DNA of 64,000 bases from Candidatus Iainarchaeum sp. (GTDB lineage: Archaea > Iainarchaeota > Iainarchaeia > Iainarchaeales > JAZDDZ01), in contig JAZDDZ010000054.1 of assembly GCA_043809245.1 (NCBI GenBank), forward strand, positions 1 to 64,000, given 5' to 3'. Below, piece by piece: positions 21,860-58,039 of the stretch; the stretch's first letter is position 1, and every line of letters starts with the position of its first letter. The translations under genes were made by a program, and so were the position numbers. The notes beneath the pieces are model-generated. The model searched no databases and was not told the origin of the DNA. It worked only from the letters and a program-made list of their open reading frames with translations.

Positions 21860-24800
21860 ATGAAACACAAGCGCTGGCTGCTATTTTTTCTTTTCATCAC
21901 AGTATTCGCAATCAATGCAGCTGCAGACCTGATTTCCTGGCAACAGTCAACCAACACTGCATGGGATTCTGCAAAAGGCGGGCACGCAGCAGTTGTGTTT
22001 AACGGAAAAATGTGGGTGCTTGGCGGAAGCAGCGCGGCAGGCGGACCCTACAGCAATGATGTGTGGTCTTCAGTTGACGGAATAACCTGGGCAAAATCCA
22101 CAATCACTTCCCCAAGCATGTGGGATGCCAGGACAAGCCACACAGCAATTGTTTATGACAACAAGATTTGGGTTATGGGTGGATGGCACGGCCCTAATGA
22201 CGACAGAAGCGATGTATGGTATTCGATTGACGGCTCATTTTGGACAAGAGCCACGCAAAACGCGCCTTGGGGTGAAAGGTCAGGGCACGCAGCAGTTGTC
22301 TTTGACGGAAAAATGTGGGTACTCGGAGGCACAGAAGTTTCTGCAAGCGGTACTGTAACTTATTTCAATGATGCATGGTGGTCAACAGACGGAACAAACT
22401 GGACACAGGAAACTGCAAGCGCGCCATGGGGTGCAAGATTCGGTCATTCGGCAGTGGTCTACAACAACAAAATTTGGGTTATCGGTGGAAAAGAACAAGG
22501 CATTGACCCAAGCGTATGGAAAAAAGACGTTTGGTCATCATCAGCTGATGGGACAAGCTGGGCAATGAATTCAAGCATTGGAATGCAGGGCAGAGGCGAA
22601 CTGGCAGCAGTAGAGTATGACGGCAAGATGTGGGTTTTCGGGGGATATTATATTCCTGAGTTTAGCGCAAGCCTATCTTTTCCCCGCGATGTGTGGTACT
22701 CAACAGACGGCACAACATGGGCAAGGGACACAAGCACTGCAGGCTGGCCTGGAAGGAAAGACTTCACGGCGCTTGTTTATTCCGGCAAAATATTTCTGAT
22801 GGGTGGGGTAAATGGATCCGGCGGAGCAGATTATCTCAGGGATGTGTGGACAAGCAACTGGATAAGTGGCTGCCCAGACAGCCAAAGGATTTTCAGAATC
22901 AACGCAACAACAAACGCGCACGGCGAGCAATGGAACCTTGCAAATTACTCAACGGAAATATGCGTTCCTGCAGCGCTTCAGGCAGCCTATGTTCCAGGGG
23001 CAACACCACACGCATGCACAGCAACAAACCAAGTTGTAAGGCTTTACGGAACAACACCAATAACAAACGCACACGGAGAAAGAACACAAGGCACAACCGC
23101 GGGCTATTCCAATGTCTGCCTTGGAAACCTTCAATGCATTACAAGAAGCGATAGCTGTGATCCAGGAGAAACATGCGTTGTAAAACTCAGCGACCTCACA
23201 AACGCGCACTTTGAAACCTGTAGTGAAACAAATTACAATTACTTTGTGTGCTGCAATGTGCCTTCCGGCCCTGTTCCGAATTTAAGCGCTGAGGCCGGCG
23301 GCCCTTATAATGAAACAACTGGTGTGCTATTTTCTTTGGCTGGCGCTGCAATAGGCGGAACCCCGCCCTACAATTACAGCTGGGCAATTTCTCCAGGAGC
23401 AGGATGCCCGGCAAGCGCTTCAGGGCAAAACCCGTCAATTACCTGCACGGGAGAGGGAAGCAGCACTGCAACGCTCACGGTAACAGACTCTACGGCGAGC
23501 ACCGACACAGATGATGCTCCAATTACTGTAAGCGCTCCGCCTGCATGCACGCCGACTGAAACACCAAACGAATTAACGTGCAATGACGGGTTTGACAACG
23601 ACTGCGATACACTAATTGACTGCTCAGACCCTGACTGCAGTTCTGCATCAAACTGCATTTCGTGCACGCCAACGGAAGTGCCGGAAATCACCTGCGATGA
23701 CTTAACCGATAACGACTGCGACAATTTAATAGACTGCGCAGATCCGGATTGTTCAACAAGCCCTGCATGCATAACAACTTGCACCCCAACAGAAAGCCCA
23801 AACGAACTTACATGTGATGATGGAATTGACAATGACTGCGATGGATTGTTTGACTGCGGGGACAGCGACTGTTCAAGCGCGGAAAACTGTGTTTCAAACC
23901 AGCCGCCGACTGCAACGCTTAGCGCGAACCAAACAAGCGGAACACAGCCATTTAATGTAACGTTTGACGCGCAATGCAATGACAGTGACGGAACAATTTT
24001 TTCCTGTGAACTTGATTTCGGCGACGGTTCAGCTCCAATTAACATTGGTTCAGGCACCGCGAATGTAAGCGGAAGCCCAAGCCACAGTTACAATAACCCC
24101 GGAACTTTTAACGCAGTTTTGACTGCGGTTGACAACCAAGGCGCAATTGATACTGACACGGCAACAATAATGGTCAGCGCTTCAGGAACACCAAGCTGCA
24201 CAGTAATCCTAAACCCAAACCAAATTGAAACCCAGACAGGAACAACAAGCGTTGAAGTAAGCTATCTGAATACTTCAAACCCAACATTTCAGGTCACCTG
24301 TGGAGACGAATCATCAAACACGCCATCACAAACCTGCAGTTCATCTCCCTGCCCAATCGGCAACTGCGGAGTGTATACATCAACTGGCTACACAAACATC
24401 ACGGCAACAACAATTGGAGGCTCAGAAAACGCCAACTGCTTCGAACGCCTGACAATAAGCAATCCAGGCTGCAACGACGGAACCTTTACACCTGCAACCG
24501 AGGACTGTGAACCAGGAGTAAATGAAACCGCATGCACAGGCGCAACGCCTGAATGCAGCACGATTACCTGCAATTGTATAGCCGCATCCTCTTCAGATGA
24601 CTATATTTTATCAGTAACCGTTACTCCTTTCTCTGTGCCAAACGATGGTTCCAGCACTGCAACTGTCAAGGCATTGCTTTCAAACAATTTTGAGATAAAT
24701 CTGGAGATACTTAACGGGGTGACAAACCAGCCAGTGGCGGGAATCCCTTTAATAGCAAAATCACCCACTGCCGCTGCGCCAAAAGAAGTGGAATTTATCC

Positions 24801-33223: not shown

Positions 33224-33688
33224 ATGGGCTGGTACGGCGTATTTTTGGTCCCGAAACTGAAGCTGTGCTTCTACTTAAGAAGCGTTGACCAAGGCGTTCT
33301 TGAATCGCATTTCGAATCTCTGGACAGATTTTTTGACAAGCATGACAAGCTAAAAGAAGACAGCCCCCCCACAGATTCAAGTAATGTTTACACTTCAGGC
33401 TACTGCTGCTCAGGAACATGGCAAACAACAAGCTGCACACCCGCTCAGCAATGCACAGTAAATATAGCAACGCCGTGCACGATTTCAATTGCAGGAGGCA
33501 CAATCAATTCCTGCACACAGCAGAATCTCATCTACCAATACAACGCAACGACAACAGTGAACAACACAGTCAACGGATTACAAGCAAGCAAAGCATACAA
33601 CATCAAAATAGAAAACACGACAACAGGGGCAACACAAAACAAAACTGTAAGCACCAACTCTGCGGGAGTGCTGCAGTTCAGCAACTGA
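33224..33688 (+). pseudogene. Chimeric ORF: 46 unrelated N-terminal residues fused to orphan 3' fragment 2 of the 186..3338 family
   Basis: From ~33362 aligns with 3009..3338; last 89 aa show 16 differences; no signal peptide. Confidence 0.8.
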
Positions 33689-47627: not shown

Positions 47628-48374
47628 ATGGCTAAGAAAGGTGAAGGGAAAAGCCAGAAAAGGCTGAGCGCGCAGAAGGCAATGTTTTTGCCTAGAAAAG
47701 GAAAGGTTTGGGCGATAAAGGGAAGGCCGGGGCCGCACAGCAGCCAGGCATCAGTGCCATTGGGTTTTGTTTTAAGGGATTTGCTTGGAATCGCGAAGAC
47801 TTTAAAGGAAGCGAAAAAAATCCTTTTAAGCGGCGCAGTGCATGTAAATGGAGTTGTTAGAACCGAGTACAGGCTTCCAGTGGGAATTTTTGACCTCATT
47901 GAATTGCCTGGGGTGAAAAAAGTTTACAGGGCAGTCATTGACTCAAAGCAAAGGATTGCGGTAAGGGTTTTGGATGCAAAAGCCGAGAAGGCAAGGATCT
48001 GCAAGGTCACGGGAAAAAAGACCGCGAAAAAAGGAATGGTGCAATTGACCTTCAATGATGGCACGGTTTTGCTTGAAAAGAAAACAAAGCTGAAATGCAT
48101 GGATTCCGCGAAATTAAGCGTGCCTGAAAAAAAGATTTTGGCAGAACTTGCGTTAAGCGAGGGAAGCCTTGCCTATCTTTTGACTGGAAAATCCGCGGGA
48201 GCTGTCGCAAGAATCAAAAAGATTTTCGAGGCCACGATGAGAAAGCCGAGAGTAGTCGAGCTTGAGCAGGGAAAAAATGTTTTCCAGACAAACGCGGAAA
48301 ACGTGCTTGTGGTCGGAGAAAAAAAATTGGAGATTGACTTGGGAATAGAGGAAGAAAAAAATAAAAGGGAATGA
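47628..48374 (+). CDS. rps4e: 30S ribosomal protein S4e
   Basis: PGPH, LRDLL, PVGIFD. Confidence 0.95.
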   Translation: MAKKGEGKSQKRLSAQKAMFLPRKGKVWAIKGRPGPHSSQASVPLGFVLRDLLGIAKTLKEAKKILLSGAVHVNGVVRTEYRLPVGIFDLIELPGVKKVYRAVIDSKQRIAVRVLDAKAEKARICKVTGKKTAKKGMVQLTFNDGTVLLEKKTKLKCMDSAKLSVPEKKILAELALSEGSLAYLLTGKSAGAVARIKKIFEATMRKPRVVELEQGKNVFQTNAENVLVVGEKKLEIDLGIEEEKNKRE

Positions 48375-48380
48375 AAGAAC

Positions 48381-48902
48381 ATGGGCGAAAGCAACAACCA
48401 CATGAGGGAAATAGAGATTGAAAAGGTCACGGTAAACATGGGTGTTGGCCAGACAGGGCAGGAACTCGACAAGGCATGCACTATCCTTGAGAACATCACG
48501 GGAATGAAGCCATTGAGGACTTCATGCAAGGTCAGGATTCCGACCTGGGGTATAAGGGAAGGCCTGCTTATCGGCGCGAAGGTTACCTTGCGCGGAAAAA
48601 AAGCCGAGGAATTCCTTAAAAAGGCATTGAATGCAAAGGACAATTCGGTTAAGGGGAAAAGCTTTGACCAGAAAGGAAACTTTGGCTTTGGGGTAAAGGA
48701 GCATATTGACATGCCGGGAGTAAAATACGACCCAAAGTTAGGCATAAGGGGCTTGGATGTGCTTGTTACGCTTAAAAGGCACGGGGGATACAGGCTTAGA
48801 AGGAGAAAAATCGGCAAGAAAAGCATTGGTTCAAGGCACTCATTGAAAAAAGCCGAGGCAATGGAGTTTGTGAAAAAAAAATTTGGGGTTGAAGTGAAAT
48901 GA
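48381..48902 (+). CDS. rpl5: 50S ribosomal protein L5
   Basis: KVTVNMGVG, KVTLRG, GNFGFG.KEHID, YDP. Confidence 0.97.
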   Translation: MGESNNHMREIEIEKVTVNMGVGQTGQELDKACTILENITGMKPLRTSCKVRIPTWGIREGLLIGAKVTLRGKKAEEFLKKALNAKDNSVKGKSFDQKGNFGFGVKEHIDMPGVKYDPKLGIRGLDVLVTLKRHGGYRLRRRKIGKKSIGSRHSLKKAEAMEFVKKKFGVEVK

Positions 48903-49063
48903 GCGAAAAAGGAAAACTTGGCTTTGGAAAAACGCAGTCCGCGGGAAAAAAGTGCAGGAGATGCAAGAACAGGCGCGGGCTTATCTCAAAGTATGGAATG
49001 AAGCTTTGCAGGCGCTGCTTCAAGGACGTTGCCTTGCAGATGGGTTTCAAGAAATTCGATTAG
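48899..49063 (+). CDS. rps14: 30S ribosomal protein S14 (54 aa, absent from ORF track)
   Basis: MSEKGKLG..CRRC..GLISKYG..LCRRCF..MGFKKFD*; between rpl5 and rps8. Confidence 0.95.
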   Translation: MSEKGKLGFGKTQSAGKKCRRCKNRRGLISKYGMKLCRRCFKDVALQMGFKKFD

Positions 49064-49096
49064 TGAGATTAATGAAAGATTTAGGAAAAATATATA

Positions 49097-49157
49097 GAGG
49101 AAGGGAATCGGGAGGAACCTGGAACTGAAGGGAAACCTAGGTTTCCCTGCGGTTCGG
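49097..49157 (+). repeat. Structured intergenic element, copy 1 (two hairpins)
   Basis: 51/62 aligned columns identical to 56933..56993; contains AGGGAAACC-TA-GGTTTCCCT. Confidence 0.88.
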
Positions 49158-49181
49158 ATGGGGTTCAAAAAATTTGACTGA
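49158..49181 (+). pseudogene. Duplicate rps14 3' end (MGFKKFD*), synonymously diverged
   Basis: ATG GGG TTC AAA AAA TTT GAC TGA vs ATG GGT TTC AAG AAA TTC GAT TAG (49040-49063). Confidence 0.88.
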
Positions 49182-49203
49182 ATTTGGAGTTTGTGGAGAG
49201 TGA

Positions 49204-49602
49204 ATGAGAATGACATTGGTTGACCCGATTGCTGACGCGCTAGTCAACATAAAGAACCACGAGAATGCCTCGAAAAAACTATGCATTGTCAGGCCTGCGG
49301 CAAAGCTTTTGGGCGAAATACTGCGCGTCATGCAGGAGCAGGGCTACATCAGCACCTACGAGTTCGTTGATGATGGAAGGGAGGGCCTTTACAAGATAAA
49401 CCTTATGGGAAAAATAAACGAGTGCAAGGCAATCAAGCCCCGGTACGCAGTCAGGAAAAACGAGTTTGAAAGATACGAGAAAAGGTATCTTCCCGCAAAA
49501 GACGTGGGCTCGTTGATTGTGAGCACCCCCCGCGGGGTTATGACGCACAATGGCGCAAAGGAAAAGGAAATCGGCGGAAGGCTGATAGCTTACATTTACT
49601 GA
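49204..49602 (+). CDS. rps8: 30S ribosomal protein S8
   Basis: DPIADAL..IKN, IVSTPRG, GGRLIAY. Confidence 0.97.
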   Translation: MRMTLVDPIADALVNIKNHENASKKLCIVRPAAKLLGEILRVMQEQGYISTYEFVDDGREGLYKINLMGKINECKAIKPRYAVRKNEFERYEKRYLPAKDVGSLIVSTPRGVMTHNGAKEKEIGGRLIAYIY

Positions 49603-49631
49603 ATGAAAAAAATTGATGGAAAAGTGGGATT

Positions 49632-50195
49632 ATGGAAGACTTTGAAAGGAAAATCAGCTTGCCGGAAGGATTTGAGGCTTCGGCTGAGGGAAGCAAGATG
49701 ACTGTCGGCTTCAAGGGAAAACAACTGGTTAAGGACTTCCACGCGCAATCGCTTTCATTCGATGTAAAGGGAAAAGAAATAGTGGTTTCAATCGCGAACG
49801 GAAAGGCAAAGAAAAGGGATTTGGCTGTGTTGAACGCAGTAAATTCCGAGATAAACAACATGCTTGCAGGGTTGTCAAAGGGATTCGAGTACAAGTTAGA
49901 GGTCGTGTACGCGCACTTCCCGATGAACATCAGTGTCAAGGAAAAAGTTGTGGAAATAAGCAATCTCTGCGGAAGCAAGATGGTCAGAAGGGCGGCAATT
50001 GTCGGTGAAACAAAGGTAGAGATAAAGGGAAAAGAGATATTTGTCAGGGGCGCGGACAAGGAAGCCGCAGGGCAGACAGCGGCAAACATAGAGCAGGCAA
50101 CAAGGCTGTCGGGAAAAGACGTAAGGGTATTCAACGACGGCATTTACATTGTTTCAAAGCCGCATGTTTCAATTGAAGAGCGTGAAAAGAAATGA
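49632..50195 (+). CDS. rpl6: 50S ribosomal protein L6
   Basis: YAHFP, GQTAANIEQ, D.RVF.DGIY. Confidence 0.96.
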   Translation: MEDFERKISLPEGFEASAEGSKMTVGFKGKQLVKDFHAQSLSFDVKGKEIVVSIANGKAKKRDLAVLNAVNSEINNMLAGLSKGFEYKLEVVYAHFPMNISVKEKVVEISNLCGSKMVRRAAIVGETKVEIKGKEIFVRGADKEAAGQTAANIEQATRLSGKDVRVFNDGIYIVSKPHVSIEEREKK

Positions 50196-50821
50196 CTGAA
50201 AAAAAATCTGTGAAGAAAGCGGAAAAGCCGAAGGCAAAGAATGCCGTGAAAAAAGAAGAGAAAAAGGCGGCTGTGGAAAAAGTGCACGAAAAAAAAGAGC
50301 ACAATGAAGCCGCAAAGCAAGTTGAGGAAAAAAAAGAGGCTGCAAAAGAGTCTTTGGGAAAAGGAAAAGATGCAAAGGAAGCAAAGGGAAAAAAGGCGAA
50401 GAAAGAAAAGCCGTCAAAGCCCAAGGCAAAAGGCAGGGGCAAAGGGCTTTCGGAAGAGGTTAAAAAGCTGAGGAAACAAATCGCCAGAAAAAAACTGCCT
50501 TCATTCAGGGGCAGGTTCGGCGAAAGGGGAAGGACAAGGAAGATAAGCAGGGAGAAATTCATGAAGTGGAGGAAGCCGCGCGGCATTGACATTAAGTTCA
50601 AGCAAGAGGACGGCGCGCTTCCAAGGACTGGTTACAAGGCCCCGAGAGAGATAAGGTTTTTGCATCCCTCGGGTTTCAGGGAAGCCCTTGTTTCAAATGC
50701 AATGCAGCTTGAAATGTTTGAAAAGAATGTGGTTGCAAGGATTGCGGGAACAGTTGGAGAAAAGAAGAGAAGGGAAATTGTGAAGAAAGCCAAGGAATTG
50801 GGTGTGAGGCTGCTTAATTGA
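50192..50821 (+). CDS. rpl32e: 50S ribosomal protein L32e with ~90-aa Lys/Glu N-terminal extension
   Basis: KWRKPRGID, GY, HPSG. Confidence 0.94.
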   Translation: MTEKKSVKKAEKPKAKNAVKKEEKKAAVEKVHEKKEHNEAAKQVEEKKEAAKESLGKGKDAKEAKGKKAKKEKPSKPKAKGRGKGLSEEVKKLRKQIARKKLPSFRGRFGERGRTRKISREKFMKWRKPRGIDIKFKQEDGALPRTGYKAPREIRFLHPSGFREALVSNAMQLEMFEKNVVARIAGTVGEKKRREIVKKAKELGVRLLN

Positions 50822-50846
50822 TTTGCGCTTTGAAAAGGTGTGAAAG

Positions 50847-51299
50847 ATGATATTGGATAAAATCAGGGAAATTTCCGCAGGGCTGCTGAAAATAGGCAAA
50901 AGCAAGGTCTGGTTTGACTCAGAAAAGCTTGACCAGATAAAGGAAGCCATGACTAAAGAGGATGTCAGGGGCCTTATAGCGGAAAAAGCGATAGGGAAGA
51001 AAAAGCCCTCACAGCACAGCAGGGGAAGGGCAAGGGTCCTGCACCAGAAAAAGAAAAAGGGAAGAAAAAGGGGCTACGGCAAAAGAAAAGGCCTTCAAAG
51101 CGCGAGGGAGAAAACAAAGGAGAAATGGATGCTGCTCTCAAGGGCTTTGAGGAAAAAGCTCAAGGAAATGAAGGGCAAAAAGGAAAAATTGAAGGTGGAT
51201 TACAGGAAGCTTTATAATTTAAGCAAGGGCGGCTACTTTAAGGGAAAAAAATACCTTGAGGCTTACGCGCTTGGAAAAGAAACCAAGGAGAAAAAATAG
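50847..51299 (+). CDS. rpl19e: 50S ribosomal protein L19e
   Basis: KVWFD, SRGRAR, G.GKRKG, KGGYF. Confidence 0.95.
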   Translation: MILDKIREISAGLLKIGKSKVWFDSEKLDQIKEAMTKEDVRGLIAEKAIGKKKPSQHSRGRARVLHQKKKKGRKRGYGKRKGLQSAREKTKEKWMLLSRALRKKLKEMKGKKEKLKVDYRKLYNLSKGGYFKGKKYLEAYALGKETKEKK

Positions 51300-51321
51300 C
51301 AAAGGAAAGGAATGAATTGTT

Positions 51322-51837
51322 ATGACACATAAAACAACCTACACTATGCCCTTCAGAAGGAGAAGAGGGGAGAAAACAAATTACAAGAAAAGGCTTGCAT
51401 TGCTCAAGTCAGGCAAGCCAAGGCTTGTTGTCAGGAAAACTAACGCGAATTTTCTCGCGCAGATAGTGAAGTTCATGCCAAAGGGAGATGAAACAGTCGC
51501 ATCAGCGAATTCAAGCGAACTGAAAAAATTCGGCTGGAACAGCCATAAGGGAAATTTGCCCACCGCATACCTCGTTGGGTTTGCATGCGCACTCAAGGCA
51601 AAGAAAAAGGAAGTGAAAGAAGCAGTGCTTGACATAGGGCTTTATACGCCGGTGCACGGCTCAAGGGTTTTCGCGGCGCTCAAGGGCGCGGTTGACGCGG
51701 GCATGCAAATAGCGCTTGACGAAAAGGTTTTCCCGAAAGAGGAAAGGCTCAAAGGAAAGCACATAAGCGAAAAAATCGCGCAGGAATTCGAAAAGGCAAA
51801 AAAAGAGATTGAGTTAAAGATAGGTGAAGCGAAATGA
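51322..51837 (+). CDS. rpl18: 50S ribosomal protein L18
   Basis: RRRR.EKTNY, RLVVRKTN, LDIGL, LKGAVDAG. Confidence 0.96.
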   Translation: MTHKTTYTMPFRRRRGEKTNYKKRLALLKSGKPRLVVRKTNANFLAQIVKFMPKGDETVASANSSELKKFGWNSHKGNLPTAYLVGFACALKAKKKEVKEAVLDIGLYTPVHGSRVFAALKGAVDAGMQIALDEKVFPKEERLKGKHISEKIAQEFEKAKKEIELKIGEAK

Positions 51838-52649
51838 GTGAAAAAGAAAGCGCAAAAAAGAAGGAAGAAAAAGTGAAGACTGTGGAAGAAGAGGAAGCCG
51901 TTGAGGCGGTAGTGGAAGCCGTGGAACTGCCTGAAGCAGTTGCGGACGATGAAGAAATCGGAGAAAGGTTTGAGAGCCTTGACAAAAGAGACGAAAGGAT
52001 GAGGGCACTCGATAAATGGGTTCCGCGGACAGAGTTGGGGAGAAAAGTCAAGGACAAGGAGATAAGCTCCCTTGAAGAGGTGTTCCAGAAAAATTACAAG
52101 ATAATGGAGCCGCAGATAGTCGACTCTCTTTTGGGCGATGTACATGAAAAAATGATTGGCTTTACCAAGACCACAAGGGTTATTGCAGCTGGAAGGCAGT
52201 TTTCGTTCCGGGCAGCGGTTATTGTAGGGGATGGAAAGAGCTATGTCGGCGTTGGAACAGGAAAGGACCGCGAGAGATGGCCTGCAATAAGGAAAGCGGG
52301 AAAAAACGCAAAACTGCACTTGATTAAGGTAAGGAAAGGCTGCGGAAGCTGGGAGTGCACGTGCGGAACCTCGCATTCAGTGCCGTTCAAAGTTGAGGGA
52401 AGTTCCAGTTCAGTCAGGGTAATACTTTACCCTGCGCCAAAGGGAACAGGCCTTGTGATAGGCGACAAGGTAAAGGATGTTTTAAGGTTTGTCGGAATAC
52501 GGGATGTCTGGAGCGACACAAGGGGCAGCACGGATACAACACTTGACTTTGTGCAGGCGACAATCAATGCTTTAAGCAAGACAACCTCGATGAAGGTTTC
52601 AAATGACATCGAGGCAAAAACAAAGGGAAATGAAAGGGGAGAATACTAA
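51834..52649 (+). CDS. rps5: 30S ribosomal protein S5
   Basis: WVPRTELG, GCGSWEC, PAPKGTG. Confidence 0.97.
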   Translation: MSEKESAKKKEEKVKTVEEEEAVEAVVEAVELPEAVADDEEIGERFESLDKRDERMRALDKWVPRTELGRKVKDKEISSLEEVFQKNYKIMEPQIVDSLLGDVHEKMIGFTKTTRVIAAGRQFSFRAAVIVGDGKSYVGVGTGKDRERWPAIRKAGKNAKLHLIKVRKGCGSWECTCGTSHSVPFKVEGSSSSVRVILYPAPKGTGLVIGDKVKDVLRFVGIRDVWSDTRGSTDTTLDFVQATINALSKTTSMKVSNDIEAKTKGNERGEY

Positions 52650-53116
52650 TGTTTGCAGTGATTAGAATCAGGGGCAGCGTTGACTTGAATTCCGAGAAAA
52701 AGAAAACCCTCGAATTTCTCAGGCTTGACAGGGTAAACCATTTGGTGCTTGTGCCGCAGACAGCGAGCATAAAGGGAATGGTGAAAAAAGTCGAGGACAC
52801 AGTAACCTTTGGGGAAATAAACGATGAAACCATTGGAAAGCTGATTGAGAAAAGGGGAAGAATGCAGGGAGACAAGATTTTCGGGACAGCGGGCTTGAAG
52901 AAGGCAGCTGGCAAGGCAAAGGACTTCAAGGAATTGGGCCTGGCATTGCTGCAGGGAAGGGTTTCACTTAAAGAACTGGGTTTGAAGCCAGTGTTCAGGC
53001 TCAGGCCGCCGAGAAAAGGCTTTGAAAGAAAGGGAATAAAGAGAAACTTTTCAATCGGGGGCGCAGCAGGTTACAGGGGAACGGAAATAAACAAATTAAT
53101 CGAGAAAATGATTTAA
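52649..53116 (+). CDS. rpl30: 50S ribosomal protein L30
   Basis: AVIRIRG, FRLRPPRKG, GYRG. Confidence 0.95.
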   Translation: MFAVIRIRGSVDLNSEKKKTLEFLRLDRVNHLVLVPQTASIKGMVKKVEDTVTFGEINDETIGKLIEKRGRMQGDKIFGTAGLKKAAGKAKDFKELGLALLQGRVSLKELGLKPVFRLRPPRKGFERKGIKRNFSIGGAAGYRGTEINKLIEKMI

Positions 53117-53123
53117 TGGAAAA

Positions 53124-53639
53124 ATGCGTTTGGTGAAAAAAATGACTGTAAGGAAGAGAAGAAAAGTAAACAAGATGCGCGGAAAAAGGCTGCATGGCGC
53201 CGGGGACACCAAGAACAGGCGCGGCTCTGGCTGCAGGGGCGGGGTAGGACGCGCGGGCAACCACAAGCACAAATTCACCAAATACTACATGGAATTCGGG
53301 ACAAAAATAACTCTGAAGGCAAAGCAAAAAGGCAAGGCAATCAACCTCGATGATTTGCAGAAAAACCTCGCGAAATGGATTGGCGAAAAAAAGGTTGAAA
53401 AGGCCTCGGGAACAATTGAGTTCGACGGAAAGAAAGTTGGCATTGCAAAAATCCTTTCAAGGGGAAGCATCAGCGAAAAAATTTCATTCAAAAACGTTTC
53501 ATTCAGCGAAAATGCAAGGCAAAAAGTGCTCGCTGCGGGCGGAAAAATCGAGGGCACGGCAAAAGAAGAAGGATTTGGCGAGGAAGACGATGACTTTGAG
53601 GCAGCCGGGGAAAACGAAGAGGGAAAAGCGGAGAAGTGA
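53124..53639 (+). CDS. rpl15: 50S ribosomal protein L15
   Basis: RG..HG.G..K..RGSG.RGG.G.AG..KH; acidic tail. Confidence 0.94.
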   Translation: MRLVKKMTVRKRRKVNKMRGKRLHGAGDTKNRRGSGCRGGVGRAGNHKHKFTKYYMEFGTKITLKAKQKGKAINLDDLQKNLAKWIGEKKVEKASGTIEFDGKKVGIAKILSRGSISEKISFKNVSFSENARQKVLAAGGKIEGTAKEEGFGEEDDDFEAAGENEEGKAEK

Positions 53640-53646
53640 AAATTGA

Positions 53647-55041
53647 ATGGGTTTCCTTGAATGGTTTGAACCGATTTACAGGCTTTTGCCCGAAGTAAAA
53701 AGCCCTGAAGTAAAGCCGACCCTGAAAAAAAGGCTGATGTGGACAGCACTTGCGCTTGTAATTTTTTACATAATGGGAAACATCCAGGTTATTGGGATAA
53801 CCGCTTCATCTGCAGGGCAGCTTGAGCAACTGCAGGTAATACTTGCATCCGAAATAGGAACACTGATTACGGTTGGAATTGGCCCAATTGTTTTGGCTTC
53901 AATTATTCTGCAGCTTTTGATTGGAGGCGGCCTGATTGACGCGGACTTGACTGACCCGAAAACAAAGGCAAGGTTCACTTCAATGCAGAAACTCATGGCC
54001 ATAGTGCTCTGCTTTTTTGAGTCAGCAATTTACGTCTTAAGCGGATTCATTGCCCCTGACCCGGGAATGCTTCTGTTTGTCGTATTACAGATTTCCTTGG
54101 GCGCAATATTATTGATTTACCTTGATGAAGTTGTTTCAAAGTACGGCATTGGTTCAGGCATTGGATTGTTCATTGCGGCAAACGTCGCGGGAAGCGTGTT
54201 CTGGAGGGTTTTCGCTCCGCCAATCGCTTTACAGGGCCAGCTCGCGGGCGGAATTTTAAGCCAGTTCATTGACTCTGTCGCAAGCGGAAGCATTAACCTG
54301 ATAATATTGCTGCCGTTGCTTTTCACGTTAATTGTTTTTGTCGTGGTAACATTCGCGGAAGGAATGCATGTGAACATTCCGCTCACGATGGGCCCTCGCG
54401 GAGTGGGCGGAAGGTTTCCCGTCAAATTCCTTTACGTTTCAAACATTCCAGTCATACTTGCAGCAGCGCTATTCGCTAATTTGCGGCTGTGGGCAGAGTT
54501 CACTAAAACCGTGCCAGTATTGGGGTATGTGTTAAATGGAGTTGCTACAATTGTTGTCGCGCCTTACGGCCTGATTGAAAAAATGCTTTTACAGGGAGTT
54601 TCATTTGACGTTTTCGGGCAAATGCTTGACAGCATATTGAAATTACAGATAATAGGGCTTGGAGGCGAAATAATACACGCGATCCTCTACATAATTATTT
54701 TGACTGTGCTTTGTGTTGTTTTCGGAAAATTCTGGGTTGACATGGGCGGACAGGGCACTGAAGCCGTGAGCAACCAATTGCAGAAAGCGGGAATGAGCAT
54801 CCCAGGTTTCAGGAAGGACCCGCGCATTATAAGGAAAGTGCTTGAAAGGTACATTCCCCCTGTAACTGTTTTGGGCTCGATTTTCGTGGGGTTGCTTGCT
54901 GGCTTTGCGGACTTGACAGGCGCGCTTGGCTCAGGCACAGGCATACTGCTAACGGTTGGAATTGTTTACAGGCTTTACGAGGACCTTGCAAAAGAGCAGG
55001 TTGCGGAAATGTACCCAATGCTTGGAAGGTTTTTCACTTGA
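53647..55041 (+). CDS. secY: Preprotein translocase SecY
   Basis: Multiple TMs; GIGPIV, YGIGSG, YVSNIP, IPGFR.D, GTGILL. Confidence 0.97.
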   Translation: MGFLEWFEPIYRLLPEVKSPEVKPTLKKRLMWTALALVIFYIMGNIQVIGITASSAGQLEQLQVILASEIGTLITVGIGPIVLASIILQLLIGGGLIDADLTDPKTKARFTSMQKLMAIVLCFFESAIYVLSGFIAPDPGMLLFVVLQISLGAILLIYLDEVVSKYGIGSGIGLFIAANVAGSVFWRVFAPPIALQGQLAGGILSQFIDSVASGSINLIILLPLLFTLIVFVVVTFAEGMHVNIPLTMGPRGVGGRFPVKFLYVSNIPVILAAALFANLRLWAEFTKTVPVLGYVLNGVATIVVAPYGLIEKMLLQGVSFDVFGQMLDSILKLQIIGLGGEIIHAILYIIILTVLCVVFGKFWVDMGGQGTEAVSNQLQKAGMSIPGFRKDPRIIRKVLERYIPPVTVLGSIFVGLLAGFADLTGALGSGTGILLTVGIVYRLYEDLAKEQVAEMYPMLGRFFT

Positions 55042-55043
55042 AC

Positions 55044-55074
55044 GAGGAAGGGGAATTGATTGGAATAAGGGAAA
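55044..55074 (+). repeat. Possible degenerate third copy of the structured element
   Basis: GAGGAAGGGGAAT..TGGAATAAGGGAAA resembles GAGGAAGGGAAT..TGGAACTGAAGGGAAA of copy 1; hairpin 3' arm missing. Confidence 0.35.
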
Positions 55075-55183
55075 TTTTTAATGAAAGGGGCATGGGTTTA
55101 ATAATGAATGGCAGCAAAAATAATTATACGCAAATAACGCCATTTTGCTTCAAATCCCCCGTTAAATGGCTTAAAAAGGTGGT

Positions 55184-55678
55184 TTGCTGATGGTTATTTT
55201 CTCCCCAATCATAGACATTGCATTGGTTGCCTTTGGCTTGGCATTGGTTTCAATGGTCCTGCAGGTGAAGCTTTTCAAGAAAAGGGAGAAGGCATTAATT
55301 CAGAAAAAAATCAAGGAAATACAGAAAAAAATAAGCGAGCTCACAAAAAAAGGCGGGGACAAAAAGGAAATTGACAGGCTGCAGGAGGAAATGTTAAAGC
55401 TGTTGAACGAGCAGATGAAGGACATGCCAAAGCAGATGATTGTCTCAATGATAATCTTCCTTCCCCCATTTTACTTCATCCGCGAAATTTACGGAAACAG
55501 CATTCACATGCTGCATCCTTTCGGCCTTGACATACCCCTTTTTGGAACAACAATGGGCTGGTTTGAGGTGTACATAATTTGCTCGCTTATCTCGAGCCTT
55601 GTGCTGAATGCAATTGTTGACGCTTACGAGAAAAATAAAGTAAAAAATGAAAACGGAAACAAAATTGTTAAGGGATAA
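55184..55678 (+). CDS. DUF106 / EMC3-TMCO1 (Oxa1 superfamily) membrane protein
   Basis: TM, coiled coil, TM, GW..Y..C TM; canonical position after secY. Confidence 0.85.
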   Translation: MLMVIFSPIIDIALVAFGLALVSMVLQVKLFKKREKALIQKKIKEIQKKISELTKKGGDKKEIDRLQEEMLKLLNEQMKDMPKQMIVSMIIFLPPFYFIREIYGNSIHMLHPFGLDIPLFGTTMGWFEVYIICSLISSLVLNAIVDAYEKNKVKNENGNKIVKG

Positions 55679-56023
55679 TTGATGCCGAGAAGAAGCCAAA
55701 GGTCAAAGAGCAAAAAGTTCAGGAAGACTCCTGGGGGAAAAACAAAGACGCATTACTTTAAGGGCAAGGGAAGCAAGCACGAGTGCGCTTCATGCGGAAA
55801 GCAATTGCACGGAGTGCCGCATTCAAGGAAAAACTTTGAGGTAAGGAACCTTTCGAAAAGCCAGAGAAGGCCAAGCGCATTGTTCGGCGGCGTGCTCTGC
55901 GGAAAATGCAGGCGCATTGTTGTAGAGGAAACCGCAAAAGTAAAGCACGGATTGAAGGAAGCGGGGGATGTTTCGCTTTCGTTGAAAAAATTCGTGGAAC
56001 AGGCAATGAAAAAAGTTGATTAA
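55679..56023 (+). CDS. rpl34e: 50S ribosomal protein L34e
   Basis: KTPGG, C..CG..L.G, GGVLC..C. Confidence 0.95.
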   Translation: MMPRRSQRSKSKKFRKTPGGKTKTHYFKGKGSKHECASCGKQLHGVPHSRKNFEVRNLSKSQRRPSALFGGVLCGKCRRIVVEETAKVKHGLKEAGDVSLSLKKFVEQAMKKVD

Positions 56024-56261
56024 GGGAATGTTTATGGCTGGAGCAATAGAGATTGGAAGCATTTGCGTTAAGACCACTGGCAGAAGCGCGGGAAAAACCG
56101 CTGTAGTGGTTGACTTTGACAAGGAAGGCTTTGCGGTTATTGACGGCACTGCGCTGAAAAGAAAAAAATGCAATATAAGGCATTTATTGCCCACTGGAAA
56201 AAAAGTTGAGATAAAAAAAGGCGCCTCGCACGAAGAAGTGGTTAAAAAATTAAAGGGGTAA
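56016..56261 (+). CDS. rpl14e: 50S ribosomal protein L14e
   Basis: G.ICVK..GR.AGK..V, NIRHL.PT; start probably 56034. Confidence 0.93.
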   Translation: MIKGMFMAGAIEIGSICVKTTGRSAGKTAVVVDFDKEGFAVIDGTALKRKKCNIRHLLPTGKKVEIKKGASHEEVVKKLKG

Positions 56262-56900
56262 TTGGTTTTTATGGCTGAAGAAAAACAGGAAAAGAAAGGC
56301 GCACAGCAGAAAGACGGGGGCCAGCGCCAGCACAAGCAGCCTTACTCAAAAGACCTGAGGCTCAGGGCAAGGGACACAGAAGACAAGGATGTTAGGTACA
56401 TTGTCAGAATTGCGGGAAAGGACCTTGACGGAAGCCTTCCGGTTTACCATGCGGTTCAGTCAATTAAGGGAATAGGCCAGAGAATGGGAAAAATAATCGC
56501 ATTTGCGTTTGAAAAGGAATCAGGCATTGGCTCTGAAACTCCTTTGGGAAAAATTCCCGAAGACAAGGACAAGGCATTGGAGGAAATAGTTCTGCATCCC
56601 GAGAAATTCGGGGCGCCTTCATGGACACTTAACAAGCGCAGGGACTTTGAAACAGGCTTGGACTGGCACCCTGTAATGAACGACTGGGATTTTGGAATAA
56701 GAAAAGACGTGCAGAGAATGGCGGAGACAAAATCTTACAAGGGATTAAGGCACATGTGGGGCCAGCCAGTGAGAGGGCAAAGGACAAAGAGCACGCACAG
56801 GGGCAAAGGCCCTGTTGTAGGGGTAATGAAGAAAGACGCAGGCAAGCCAGGCGCCGCGGCAGCACCCGGGGCAAAAGGCGAAAAGGAAAAAAAGAAATAA
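56262..56900 (+). CDS. rps13: 30S ribosomal protein S13
   Basis: IVRIAG.D, IKGIG, SYKGLRH, PVRGQRT. Confidence 0.96.
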   Translation: MVFMAEEKQEKKGAQQKDGGQRQHKQPYSKDLRLRARDTEDKDVRYIVRIAGKDLDGSLPVYHAVQSIKGIGQRMGKIIAFAFEKESGIGSETPLGKIPEDKDKALEEIVLHPEKFGAPSWTLNKRRDFETGLDWHPVMNDWDFGIRKDVQRMAETKSYKGLRHMWGQPVRGQRTKSTHRGKGPVVGVMKKDAGKPGAAAAPGAKGEKEKKK

Positions 56901-56932
56901 AAAAAGGAGCTAAGATGAAATAAAAATCTGCG

Positions 56933-56993
56933 GAGGAAGGGGGTCAGGAAGACCCTGAAACTGGGGGGAAACCCTAGGTTTCCCGCGGTTTGG
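56933..56993 (+). repeat. Structured intergenic element, copy 2 (two hairpins)
   Basis: TCAGG-AAGAC-CCTGA and AAACTG..GGGAAACC-CTA-GGTTTCCC..CGGTTT; homologous to 49097..49157. Confidence 0.88.
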
Positions 56994-57011
56994 AAGGAAA
57001 AGAAAAAGTGA
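56994..57011 (+). pseudogene. Duplicate rps13 3' end (KEKKK*), synonymously diverged
   Basis: AAG GAA AAG AAA AAG TGA vs AAG GAA AAA AAG AAA TAA (56883-56900); low complexity lowers confidence. Confidence 0.65.
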
Positions 57012-57017
57012 TGATTT

Positions 57018-57650
57018 ATGGGCGACCCGAAAAAAACCTCAAGGCAGTATGAAAGGCCGAAAAAAAGATGGCAGAAGCAGAGGATAGAGAGCGAGAAGAA
57101 GATACTTGAAATCTACGGCCTGAAAAACAAAAGGGAATTAAGGAGAGCCGAGACAATTTTAAGGAAGAAAAGGCAGAGCGCAAGAAAGCTCCTTGCATTG
57201 CCTTTGGAGAAAAGGGAGAAAAAGGAACGCGAACTCGTTGAAAGCCTGATTAGAATGGGGCTGTTCAAGGCAAAGGCAACAGCCGACGACATCTTAAGCC
57301 TTTCAATTGAGGAACTTCTTGAGAGAAGGCTGCAGACAATCATCTGGAGAAAAAACCTGGCAAAGACAGTCAAGCAGGCAAGGCAGTTCATCGCCCATGG
57401 GCACATTGCGGTTAACGGAGTAAAGACAACAAGCCCGAGCTACATTGTAAGGCACGGCGAAGAGGCAAAAATAGCCTATTACAAGAGGCCGATAATGCTT
57501 GAACCCCCAAAAAAAGACTCAAAGGAAAAAATGAAGAAAGCATTCGAGGAAGCAGCGCCCGCAGCAATTGAAGCCGCAGAGGAAGCAAAGGCAGGGGCAG
57601 TTGAAGCCGCGGCTGAAAAGAAAGAAACTCCTGTGGAGGCAAAGCAATGA
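57018..57650 (+). CDS. rps4: 30S ribosomal protein S4
   Basis: MGDPKK, YGLKNK.E, ERRLQT, ARQFI.HGHI. Confidence 0.97.
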
Positions 57651-58039
57651 GCGACAAAATAAAGCGCGGAATAATCCACATTTACGCATCGCACAACAAC
57701 ACAATTATTTTGCTTACAGACCCCACTGGAGCGGAAACGATTGCAAAGTGCTCCGGGGGCATGGTTGTAAAGGCACAGCACAAAGAGGGCTCCCCTTATG
57801 CTGCAATGAAGGTAGCGGAAATCGTGGCGGAAAAGGCAAGGGAAAAAGGGATAACTAATGTCAAGATAAGGGTCAGGGCACAGGGAGGCATCAAGCCCCG
57901 TTCACCAGGCCAGGGCGCCGAGGCCGCAATTGTTTCGCTTACAAGGCACGGAATGATGATAGAGGACATTGAAAATGTCACGCCTTTGCCTCACGACGGC
58001 TGCAGGAGAAAAAAAAGGAACAGGAGCAAAAAAACTTAA
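57647..58039 (+). CDS. rps11: 30S ribosomal protein S11
   Basis: HIYAS.NNT, SPYAAM, TPLPHDG. Confidence 0.97.

Follow-up and report, generated by a model that had tools for sequence, protein, structure and literature searches.

The stretch of DNA analysed here (the window) comprises 64,000 nt of Candidatus Iainarchaeum sp. (assembly GCA_043809245.1, contig JAZDDZ010000054.1, positions 1 to 64,000, forward strand) and contains an archaeal ribosomal protein operon in which an insert lies between the genes for S14 and S8. The conserved part of this insert, 61 nt at 49097-49157, recurs in the S13-S4 interval. A first reading, made from the sequence only, had proposed a conserved structured RNA or the end of a single-stranded DNA with a precise 3' boundary, co-transcribed in ribosomal operons. 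The analysis reported here favours DNA. With a probability of about three in four, the 61-nt segment is the conserved core of a family of small, non-coding and protein-less mobile DNA elements that bear a hairpin/third-strand fold signature and are widespread in DPANN archaea. The reading follows from the combination of one exact end, one ragged end, long target duplications of variable length and a predicted fold made of a hairpin and a third strand. The conserved core measures ~60 nt and the copies ~80-130 nt including lineage-specific 5' parts; the inserts stay below 150 nt and contain neither an open reading frame (ORF) nor a recombinase gene.

The two copies in the window

The two copies were realigned (49097-49157 with 56933-56993) and matched at 51 of 62 columns, which is the figure given by the sequence-only reading. 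A 20-nt motif of the element was found at 2 sites compared to 0.02 expected by chance. The letters of both hairpins were recovered as claimed, namely TCGGG/CCTGG and TCAGG/CCTGA for hairpin 1 and, for hairpin 2, GAACTG...CGGTTC and AAACTG...CGGTTT at the base with GGGAAACC/GGTTTCCC on top. Both copies terminate in GCGGTTYGG and neither is followed by a T-run (a U-tract on the RNA level). Behind copy 1, the codons of ATGGGGTTCAAAAAATTTGACTGA repeat the end of S14, also as claimed. The sequence behind copy 2, AAGGAAAAGAAAAAGTGA, is similar to the end of S13 (56883-56900), but it is of low complexity and its local score of 18 is weak.

A cmscan search of window positions 48000-58000 against Rfam with E values up to 10 gave three matches at chance level, none of which touched either copy. 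The whole S14-to-S8 stretch folded as RNA with z = -1.38, and a bulge-helix-bulge intron motif was not seen in it. Inspection by eye also led to the rejection of C/D-box, tRNA-like and terminator readings, as their motifs are not conserved across copies and the T-run is absent. Among public read runs, one DNA run was listed, with 5% of the sampled words, and no RNA run. The contig pieces obtained from this DNA run, 33 of 39 of which could be placed, were short and mostly <90% identical, and none spans either of the window elements.

Insertion and target duplications

The S14-S8 junction was compared with 20 metagenomic loci encoding S8 relatives of 37-89% identity. At 19 of them the element is missing, and a spacer of 10-25 nt separates the S14 stop from the S8 start. 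In the closest relative (L171, 89% identity) the element is present at the same junction, but the 39 nt that in the window hold the downstream duplicate of the S14 end are absent. The codon choice of its S14 end is that of the upstream copy in the window, and the codons TTT GAC TGA of the window's downstream copy were found again in a more distant relative (L172).

Duplications were scored as local alignments of at least 30 between the two flanks of the core (upstream 110 nt, downstream 90 nt). They were detected for 30 of 112 elements from a pattern scan, compared to 1 of 110 in a control with displaced downstream flanks. In the de-duplicated set from all sources, 35 of 138 elements had duplications with lengths of 12-53 nt (median 25). 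Both counts, and that of the 36 cases treated below, still include a 50-nt 'duplication' at locus L107, which is a piece of a tandem composite unit and not a simple target duplication. Perfect duplications were observed with 35 nt at the FKBP26 copy of the window's genome (G000 C44:22589), 36 nt (L151), 31 nt (L114), 25 nt (L083 and L093), 22 nt (L100) and 20 nt (L024).

The two ends of the element differ in precision. In 30 of the 35 elements the downstream duplicate begins 2-4 nt after GCGGTT, i.e. directly after GCGGTTYGG, and the precise 3' boundary proposed from the window copies is borne out. The upstream duplicate ends 6-82 nt (median 28) 5' of the conserved TCNGGA, and the sequence between this duplicate and the core is unique to each copy. 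Terminal inverted repeats were not found among the 138 elements: the 3' end, reverse-complemented and compared with 120 nt on the 5' side, had a median score of 12, versus 11 for shuffled ends.

Some duplications coincide with gene ends. In two tRNA insertions with perfect duplication, a tRNA-Thr (L100) and an intron-bearing tRNA called as tRNA-Ser by ARAGORN (L151), the discriminator base is exactly the last position of the upstream duplicate. In an older tRNA case (L153) the end lies 3 nt beyond the discriminator when the acceptor stem is read, or at +2 with the tRNA end given by ARAGORN, and at L219 it follows a T-rich trailer. In 4 of 36 cases the duplication end coincides exactly with the stop codon of an ORF that is open over 40 codons or more, and other offsets average ~0.4; the displacement of L155 (+1) and of the S14 copy in the window (+3) is ascribed to alignment trimming. 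A coincidence with start codons, striking by eye (L056, L099, L097, L024 and C44:4105), was dropped as the offset count over the 36 cases was not significant (three at offset 0 and three at +9). The gene-end coincidences may reflect either the mechanism, i.e. RNA ends, or selection for intact genes.

Strand counts in the relatives were based on neighbouring ORFs of at least 110 residues and count a few tandem loci twice; an earlier test with 400-nt flanks was mostly unclassifiable. Neighbours lie on the strand of the element at about 2:1, with 20 versus 11 upstream and 22 versus 10 downstream.

Several single insertions were noted in addition. Two of them (L218 and L194, genome G063) are antisense to both neighbours; here the duplication stops 1-2 nt short of the start codon of the gene on the opposite strand, and a new ribosome-binding site, GGAGG-like or GAGGTG-like, is provided by the filler with suitable spacing. 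At L216 (G065:C26, ~1410-1600 of the locus), the element and a 5' hairpin lie within a tRNA T-loop, flanked by TTCGAA and TCTCGT. Otherwise this tRNA has intact acceptor, D and anticodon arms; ARAGORN makes no call, and a clear bulge-helix-bulge motif was not seen in it. It could be a disrupted gene or one with a non-canonical intron. At L195 (G064:C30) and L036 (G022:C5), the 3' end of the element abuts the first base of a tRNA or lies 2-3 nt 5' of it, so the element would form the tRNA 5' leader.

Hairpin fold and candidate third strand

The fold was examined in an alignment of 108 model matches (105 distinct, from 98 sources), from which L065, a 'cyanobacterium' record, and L141-L164 were excluded. 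Standard pairs occupy 93.6% of the cells compared to 84.1% (sd 0.4) in shuffled alignments and at most 61.4% with slid partners. The covariation seen between the window copies held in the larger alignment, where 8 of 13 hairpin-2 pairs have both partners changed. The hairpin is rich in GC and its 5' arm is homopurine. A T-G wobble in the basal stem is retained in 103 of the 105 sequences. With this fixed wobble and the outermost position left aside, G-U pairs outnumber A-C pairs by 34 to 5, which marks the given strand as the folding one and bears out the sense-strand fold of the sequence-only reading. Two of its details were specific to the window. The compensatory outermost pair of hairpin 2 (G-C against A-U) exists in the window copies and is unpaired in 64 of the 105 family members. 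Hairpin 1 is reduced to three conserved pairs (AGG/CCT) with a single double change in the whole alignment and is therefore treated as a conserved linker.

The 61 nt of the first reading start exactly at a purine tract, GAGGAAGGGAA, that lies ~20 nt 5' of the purine arm of the hairpin. A mirror relationship between tract and arm was tested in 150 distinct elements by comparing the 8 nt 5' of TCNGGA, reversed, with the first 8 nt after AACTG. Identity averaged 6.99 of 8 positions, compared to 4.82 (sd 0.115) when tracts and arms were shuffled between elements. No comparable signal was obtained in the 150 elements for registers slid by 1-4 nt or for the direct, non-mirror order. Identity at positions 1 to 7 was 98, 96, 97, 88, 90, 86 and 81%, with both G/G and A/A frequent, and 90 of the 150 elements, spanning 14 of 32 arm types, were perfect over 7 nt. 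The commonest deviation was a T in the tract opposite an A in the arm.

This arrangement corresponds to a described DNA structure. Holder et al. 2015 (PMC4666352) define a class I purine-motif intrastrand triplex by a 5' purine strand that runs antiparallel to the purine arm of a purine/pyrimidine hairpin and is identical to this arm, and by G-G-C and A(T)-A-T triads. Their introduction states, with reference to Semerad and Maher 1994, that RNA cannot adopt purine-motif triplexes; it also states that such structures arrest polymerases. Judged by its sequence, the element carries the signature of a class I purine-motif intrastrand triplex. As the mirror tract follows the purine-motif rules, a DNA fold is favoured over an RNA fold, and the G-U bias together with the T-opposite-A deviations points to a purine motif on the sense strand and hence likewise to DNA.

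Copies within the genome

The genome (1.48 Mb, 91.8% complete) was searched with an nhmmer profile built from the first five copies. It contains 11 copies, all with E ≤ 1e-18, and the next match had E = 3.4. The proposed link to ribosomal operons did not hold, as only four of the 11 adjoin ribosomal protein genes (S14/S8, S13/S4, S24e/S27ae and L21e). Other intergenic copies adjoin NDK/dUTPase, the PolD large subunit (DP2), a DUF2226 gene and a GIDE-like gene. Three copies lie inside ORFs: one in frame in PGM_PMM (PGM/PMM), within the linker that joins domains I and II, one in the N-terminal part of a HerA-like, intein-bearing ORF of 1413 residues and one in the C-terminal tail of an FKBP26-type gene, which is truncated by the insertion. 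All 11 have the direction of the downstream or containing gene. The copies in this genome are probably tolerated passengers. A 5' extension, AAGATTKAWGAAAAAT.TATAGAGGAG, is common to most of them and was not seen among the inspected copies from other genomes. The copy on C53 differs in its 5' part; its 5' side is abutted by a C-terminal fragment of a DDE_Tnp_1 gene (G000 C53:1188-1430, 23.9 bits) on the opposite strand, and this copy may have been inserted into an old insertion sequence.

It is improbable that the element is a functional structured RNA, i.e. a leader, a processing signal or a small RNA transcribed with its host operons. Such an RNA would fit the sense-strand fold with its G-U excess and invariant U-G, the co-orientation of the 11 copies, most of which end 15-70 nt 5' of a start codon, a conserved GGAGG-like tract resembling a ribosome-binding site and, by eye, an AT-rich, TATA-like run in the genome-specific 5' part. 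However, this run was not seen in the inspected copies from other genomes, in which about one third of the neighbouring genes lie on the opposite strand, and some copies are located inside ORFs. An RNA is further opposed by the absence of an Rfam match, by insertion with target duplications at a junction that is empty in nearly all relatives and by the mirror covariation, which obeys the rules of a motif reported not to form in RNA (PMC4666352, introduction). From the alternative of the first reading, structured RNA or single-stranded DNA end, the DNA part is thus favoured. A mobile element could later have been co-opted as an RNA signal.

Distribution across DPANN archaea

A covariance model from the 11 copies was applied to 61 genomes of the order; none of the 60 besides the window's own shares its family or genus. 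The element was found in 7 of 61 genomes, the window's own included, and the six others, with 15, 7, 5, 4, 1 and 1 copies, belong to different families. For a wider search, a core pattern in IUPAC code, with the letters of the basal stem fixed and the upper stem and the tract free, was scanned against a collection with one genome per species and matched at least 113 loci. The 80 listed titles are nearly all DPANN assemblies, Micrarchaeota being the commonest, with Aenigmatarchaeota, Iainarchaeum, Nanoarchaeia/Nanobdellati, Altiarchaeales, Anstonellales, Norongarragalinales and Bilamarchaeaceae also represented; among the matches listed there are also single titles with 'Methanobacteriota', 'Euryarchaeota' and 'uncultured cyanobacterium'. 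Five further genomes chosen from the pattern matches contained 6-15 copies each in whole-genome searches, in some cases as tandem arrays of the type duplication-element-duplication-element-duplication. A viral contig collection gave no match to the pattern.

In some genomes the element is part of a larger unit. In a genome of the Micrarchaeia (G062; L192, L197, L202, L207 and L212) it belongs to a composite with an extra ~78-nt 5' part that has its own GGGGGG/CCCCCC hairpin, and these units occur in tandem and at contig ends. Genome G065 (L196, L201, L210, L216 and L219) has an additional 5' hairpin whose stem varies among copies with pairing kept (GGATTTGC/GCAAATCC, GGATTGC/GCAATCC, GGGTTG/CAACCC and GTGCGATC/GATCGCAC). 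Apparent nesting was observed at L050 (G022:C5), where an inner element replaces hairpin 2 of the outer one.

Table 1. Positions of the element copies, their parts and the adjoining genes in the window
Feature	Position	Strand	Remarks
S14 gene	48899-49063	+	intact ORF of the archaeal ribosomal protein operon, 5' of copy 1
Upstream target duplicate	49040-49063	+	last 7 codons and stop of S14 (MGFKKFD*), inside the intact ORF 48899-49063
Variable junction filler and genome-specific 5' part of the element	49064-49096	+	filler 49064-49075, 5' part AAGATTTAGGAAAAATATATA...
Purine tract GAGGAAGGGAA	49097-49107	+	candidate third (reverse-Hoogsteen) strand; reversed, equals the purine arm AAGGGAA of hairpin 2
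Conserved linker TCGGGAGGAACCTGG	49108-49122	+	hairpin 1 of the sequence-only reading; family-wide conservation is confined to the AGG/CCT pairs
Hairpin 2, with basal stem AACTG/CGGTT	49123-49155	+	invariant T-G wobble
Hairpin 2, upper stem AGGGAAACC/GGTTTCCCT	within 49123-49155	+	covarying purine/pyrimidine arms
GG	49156-49157	+	final two bases of the precise 3' end GCGGTTCGG
Downstream target duplicate ATGGGGTTCAAAAAATTTGACTGA	49158-49181	+	6 differences to 49040-49063, all synonymous
S8 gene	starts 49204		archaeal ribosomal protein operon, 3' of copy 1
Second copy, S13-S4 interval	56901-56993	+	filler and 5' part 56901-56932
Second copy, purine tract	56933-56943	+	linker from 56944, then hairpin 2
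Second copy, 3' end GCGGTTTGG	56985-56993	+
Possible downstream duplicate of the S13 end (KEKKK*)	56994-57011	+	low complexity, weakly supported; compare 56883-56900

The window contains further repeats. A coding region at 21980-22810 has 5-6 tandem repeats of ~150-160 nt that by eye resemble Kelch/beta-propeller blades and is neighboured by a run of three repeats with a unit of ~115-120 nt (23570-23871). A duplication of ~0.9 kb (241-1101 and 2164-3024, 71-85% identity, spacing 1923 nt) and a 264-nt repeat with 84% identity (3067-3330 and 33417-33680, 30 kb apart) were also observed.

Weighing of the probable mobile DNA element

A number of observations weigh against a mobile DNA element as described here. 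About three quarters of the copies have no detectable duplication, and a free or excised form of the element was not seen. For two fillers (25 and 28 nt), a search of the respective genome that allowed up to three mismatches gave no site besides the original one, and a simple copy-and-paste source within the genome is therefore unsupported. In four older gene-end insertions the duplicates differ mainly at synonymous positions (6 of 6 differences in S14, 3 of 3 at L084, 7 of 7 at L155 including a TCC/AGC serine switch and 5 of 7 at L143), a bias not expected from a dead duplicate that simply decays; L129, with two non-synonymous codons, departs from it. The pattern could have arisen by recombination with element-free alleles of other strains, importing variants filtered by selection, or one duplicate could derive from an orthologue in another genome.

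Further points concern the triplex and the enzyme. The triplex itself is predicted from covariation. Its first loop would be the ~20-nt linker TCAGGA...CCTNAAACTG and its second loop 2-7 nt, and the described motifs have loops of 1-6 nt by the ITxF definition (PMC4666352). According to the same source, a pyrimidine-motif triplex, which is also open to RNA, can arise on the strand opposite a G/C-rich motif; by symmetry, the complementary strand of the element could adopt one. With regard to enzymes, none of the 12 element-bearing genomes tested (7 of the order and 5 further ones) gave an RVT_1 match; their assemblies are incomplete, one consists of 2 contigs and is 97% complete, and five others contain perfect duplications. 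Of the 7 element-bearing genomes within the order, 3 have Y1_Tnp; it was not found in the incomplete assemblies of G004 (15 copies), G015, G022 and G047. DDE_Tnp_1 is present in 4 of the 7 and does not track the element. In the 15-copy genome all three families were not found. A search for a parent transposon with nhmmer and covariance models matched only short copies.

The enzyme search bears directly on a SINE-like (short interspersed nuclear element) retroposon, in which an RNA with a fixed 3' end would be reverse-transcribed at a nick, possibly with template switching to the 3' ends of abundant RNAs. The precise 3' end, the variable 5' end and the variable duplication length are those of such retroposons, and this route would give variable 5' ends, filler and long variable duplications. 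The duplicates that end at the tRNA discriminator (L100 and L151) or at stop codons, the preference for tRNA genes and highly expressed operons and the orientation bias of ~2:1 would fit as well. We nevertheless consider this explanation very unlikely. RVT_1 was detected in none of the 12 bearing genomes tested, and the 8 of 61 genomes of the order that have it (G001, G002, G005, G006, G012, G019, G033 and G053, with open frames of ~260-470 residues at the matches) are all without the element. Some insertions are antisense to both neighbours, the start-codon coincidence is not significant, selection for intact genes also yields coincidence with gene ends, and the purine-motif mirror tract points to DNA.

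Least likely of all are miniature integrative cassettes moved by an integrase- or integron-like site-specific recombinase with the duplications as att-type identity blocks: these would be in line with duplications that cover the 3' part of tRNAs from T-arm to discriminator, with an intact gene end rebuilt 5' of the insert, with an element 3' end (GCGGTTCGGA) that by sequence comparison resembles the start of a tRNA T-arm and with mostly synonymous differences between diverged duplicates, as expected if one copy came from the orthologue of another genome, but they are at odds with dozens of unrelated targets within single genomes, which an integrase with one attP would not produce, with duplication lengths of 12-53 nt and with inserts that lack a recombinase gene. 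XerA-type recombinases are, to our knowledge, expected in nearly all archaea.

Proposed mechanism

For the favoured mobile DNA element, a mechanism with a single-stranded DNA intermediate, a 3' end set by the fold and re-copying of the target is put forward; taken as a whole it is tentative and rather doubtful. The active form would be a DNA single strand whose hairpin carries a class I purine-motif intrastrand triplex, and this compact fold would set the fixed 3' end. Insertion would take place at exposed single-stranded DNA near gene ends, where a strand-switch or staggered-break route could re-copy tens of target bases.

The DNA might even mobilise itself without an enzyme of its own, which we regard as unlikely. 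In one version the nascent strand would fold during copying and eject the replicative polymerase at a fixed position, giving the GCGGTTYGG end. The released strand, of about the length of an Okazaki fragment, would then enter single-stranded DNA that is exposed at tRNA genes and where busy operons end, and re-copying of the target at the entry site would create the long variable duplications. Alternatively, the 3' ends of RNAs (for example the tRNA discriminator or stop codons) might determine the upstream junctions; insertion would then be RNA-end-primed and proceed without a canonical reverse transcriptase. If either version is true, this mode of transposition is undescribed in any domain of life.

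The element is of interest in several respects. DPANN genomes are very small, yet the seven best-populated genomes examined, megabase-sized, have 6-15 copies each, and the landing sites include tRNA genes, ribosomal and polymerase operons and the interior of proteins. The covariation pattern represents a clear natural case for selection on a purine-motif intrastrand DNA triplex, and if the fold drives mobility, it would link non-B DNA, polymerase arrest and rearrangement at gene ends and could also bear on the origin of extra sequences and introns in archaeal tRNA genes. Annotation pipelines will misread the duplicated gene ends and spurious small ORFs that it creates.

Comparison with known systems

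The element fails the defining tests of MITEs (transposable elements of the miniature inverted-repeat type), of REP/IS200-type elements, of retroposons and of integrase cassettes. Its footprint combines an exact end with a ragged one and with 12-53-nt duplications, lacks inverted ends and a tracking transposase, and matches no described prokaryotic transposon class. Like MITEs, it is small, non-coding, multi-copy and patchy in distribution, duplicates its target and is mostly intergenic. In contrast to MITEs, it has no terminal inverted repeats, its duplications are long and variable rather than short and fixed, one end is precise and the other variable, and a matching transposase was not found among DDE_Tnp_1 and Y1_Tnp.

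REP/REPIN sequences with their RAYT transposases and palindromic elements derived from IS200/IS605 form strand-specific hairpins of single-stranded DNA with conserved mismatches and orientation bias, depend on Y1 HUH transposases and are not known to duplicate their target. The DPANN element shares the hairpin, the strand specificity, the conserved mismatch and the orientation bias; it differs in the target duplications and in the lack of a detected Y1_Tnp in 4 of 7 bearing genomes. The only prokaryotic transposons known to us with long and variable direct repeats at the insertion site are of the IS1634/IS1549 type. These are kilobase-sized and have inverted ends and a DDE transposase, whereas DDE_Tnp_1 does not track the DPANN element.

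SINEs and other retroposons of the type without long terminal repeats have a fixed 3' end, a variable or truncated 5' end, variable duplications and an affinity for tRNA genes. The pattern of ends and duplications and the affinity for tRNA genes are shared by the DPANN element, which differs by the missing A-tail, by the failure to detect RVT_1 in the 12 bearing genomes tested and by the DNA-type triplex signature. Integrase att duplications at archaeal tRNA genes rebuild the tRNA 3' end beside the insert, and a gene 3' end is rebuilt here too, but the inserts are below 150 nt, recombinase-free and spread over many targets. Rickettsia palindromic elements survive in frame inside protein genes, as some copies of the DPANN element do; long duplications are a feature of the latter and are not known from the former.

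The family has not been described previously in the literature searched, and the MITE lists supplementing PMC11602168 might hold fragments of it; in the sections of this census drawn on here, the only related remark is one on a high MITE density in Candidatus Altiarchaeum. By analogy of structure, the nearest described relative is the bacterial BoxC/PIT triplex motif (TM-ECO; PMC4666352). It too consists of short, abundant and conserved repeats with a reverse-Hoogsteen purine tract and both arms, purine and pyrimidine, on one strand, and the domain order of the DPANN element is that of its class I, with G-G-C and A(T)-A-T triads. These motifs have been linked to polymerase arrest and genome instability (PMC4666352). 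They have loops of 1-6 nt, the E. coli motif is of class II, and the sections of PMC4666352 considered here describe neither target duplication nor insertion behaviour. The DPANN element is set apart from them by its conserved linker of ~20 nt, an extra basal stem with a fixed T-G wobble, its archaeal hosts and its clear insertions.

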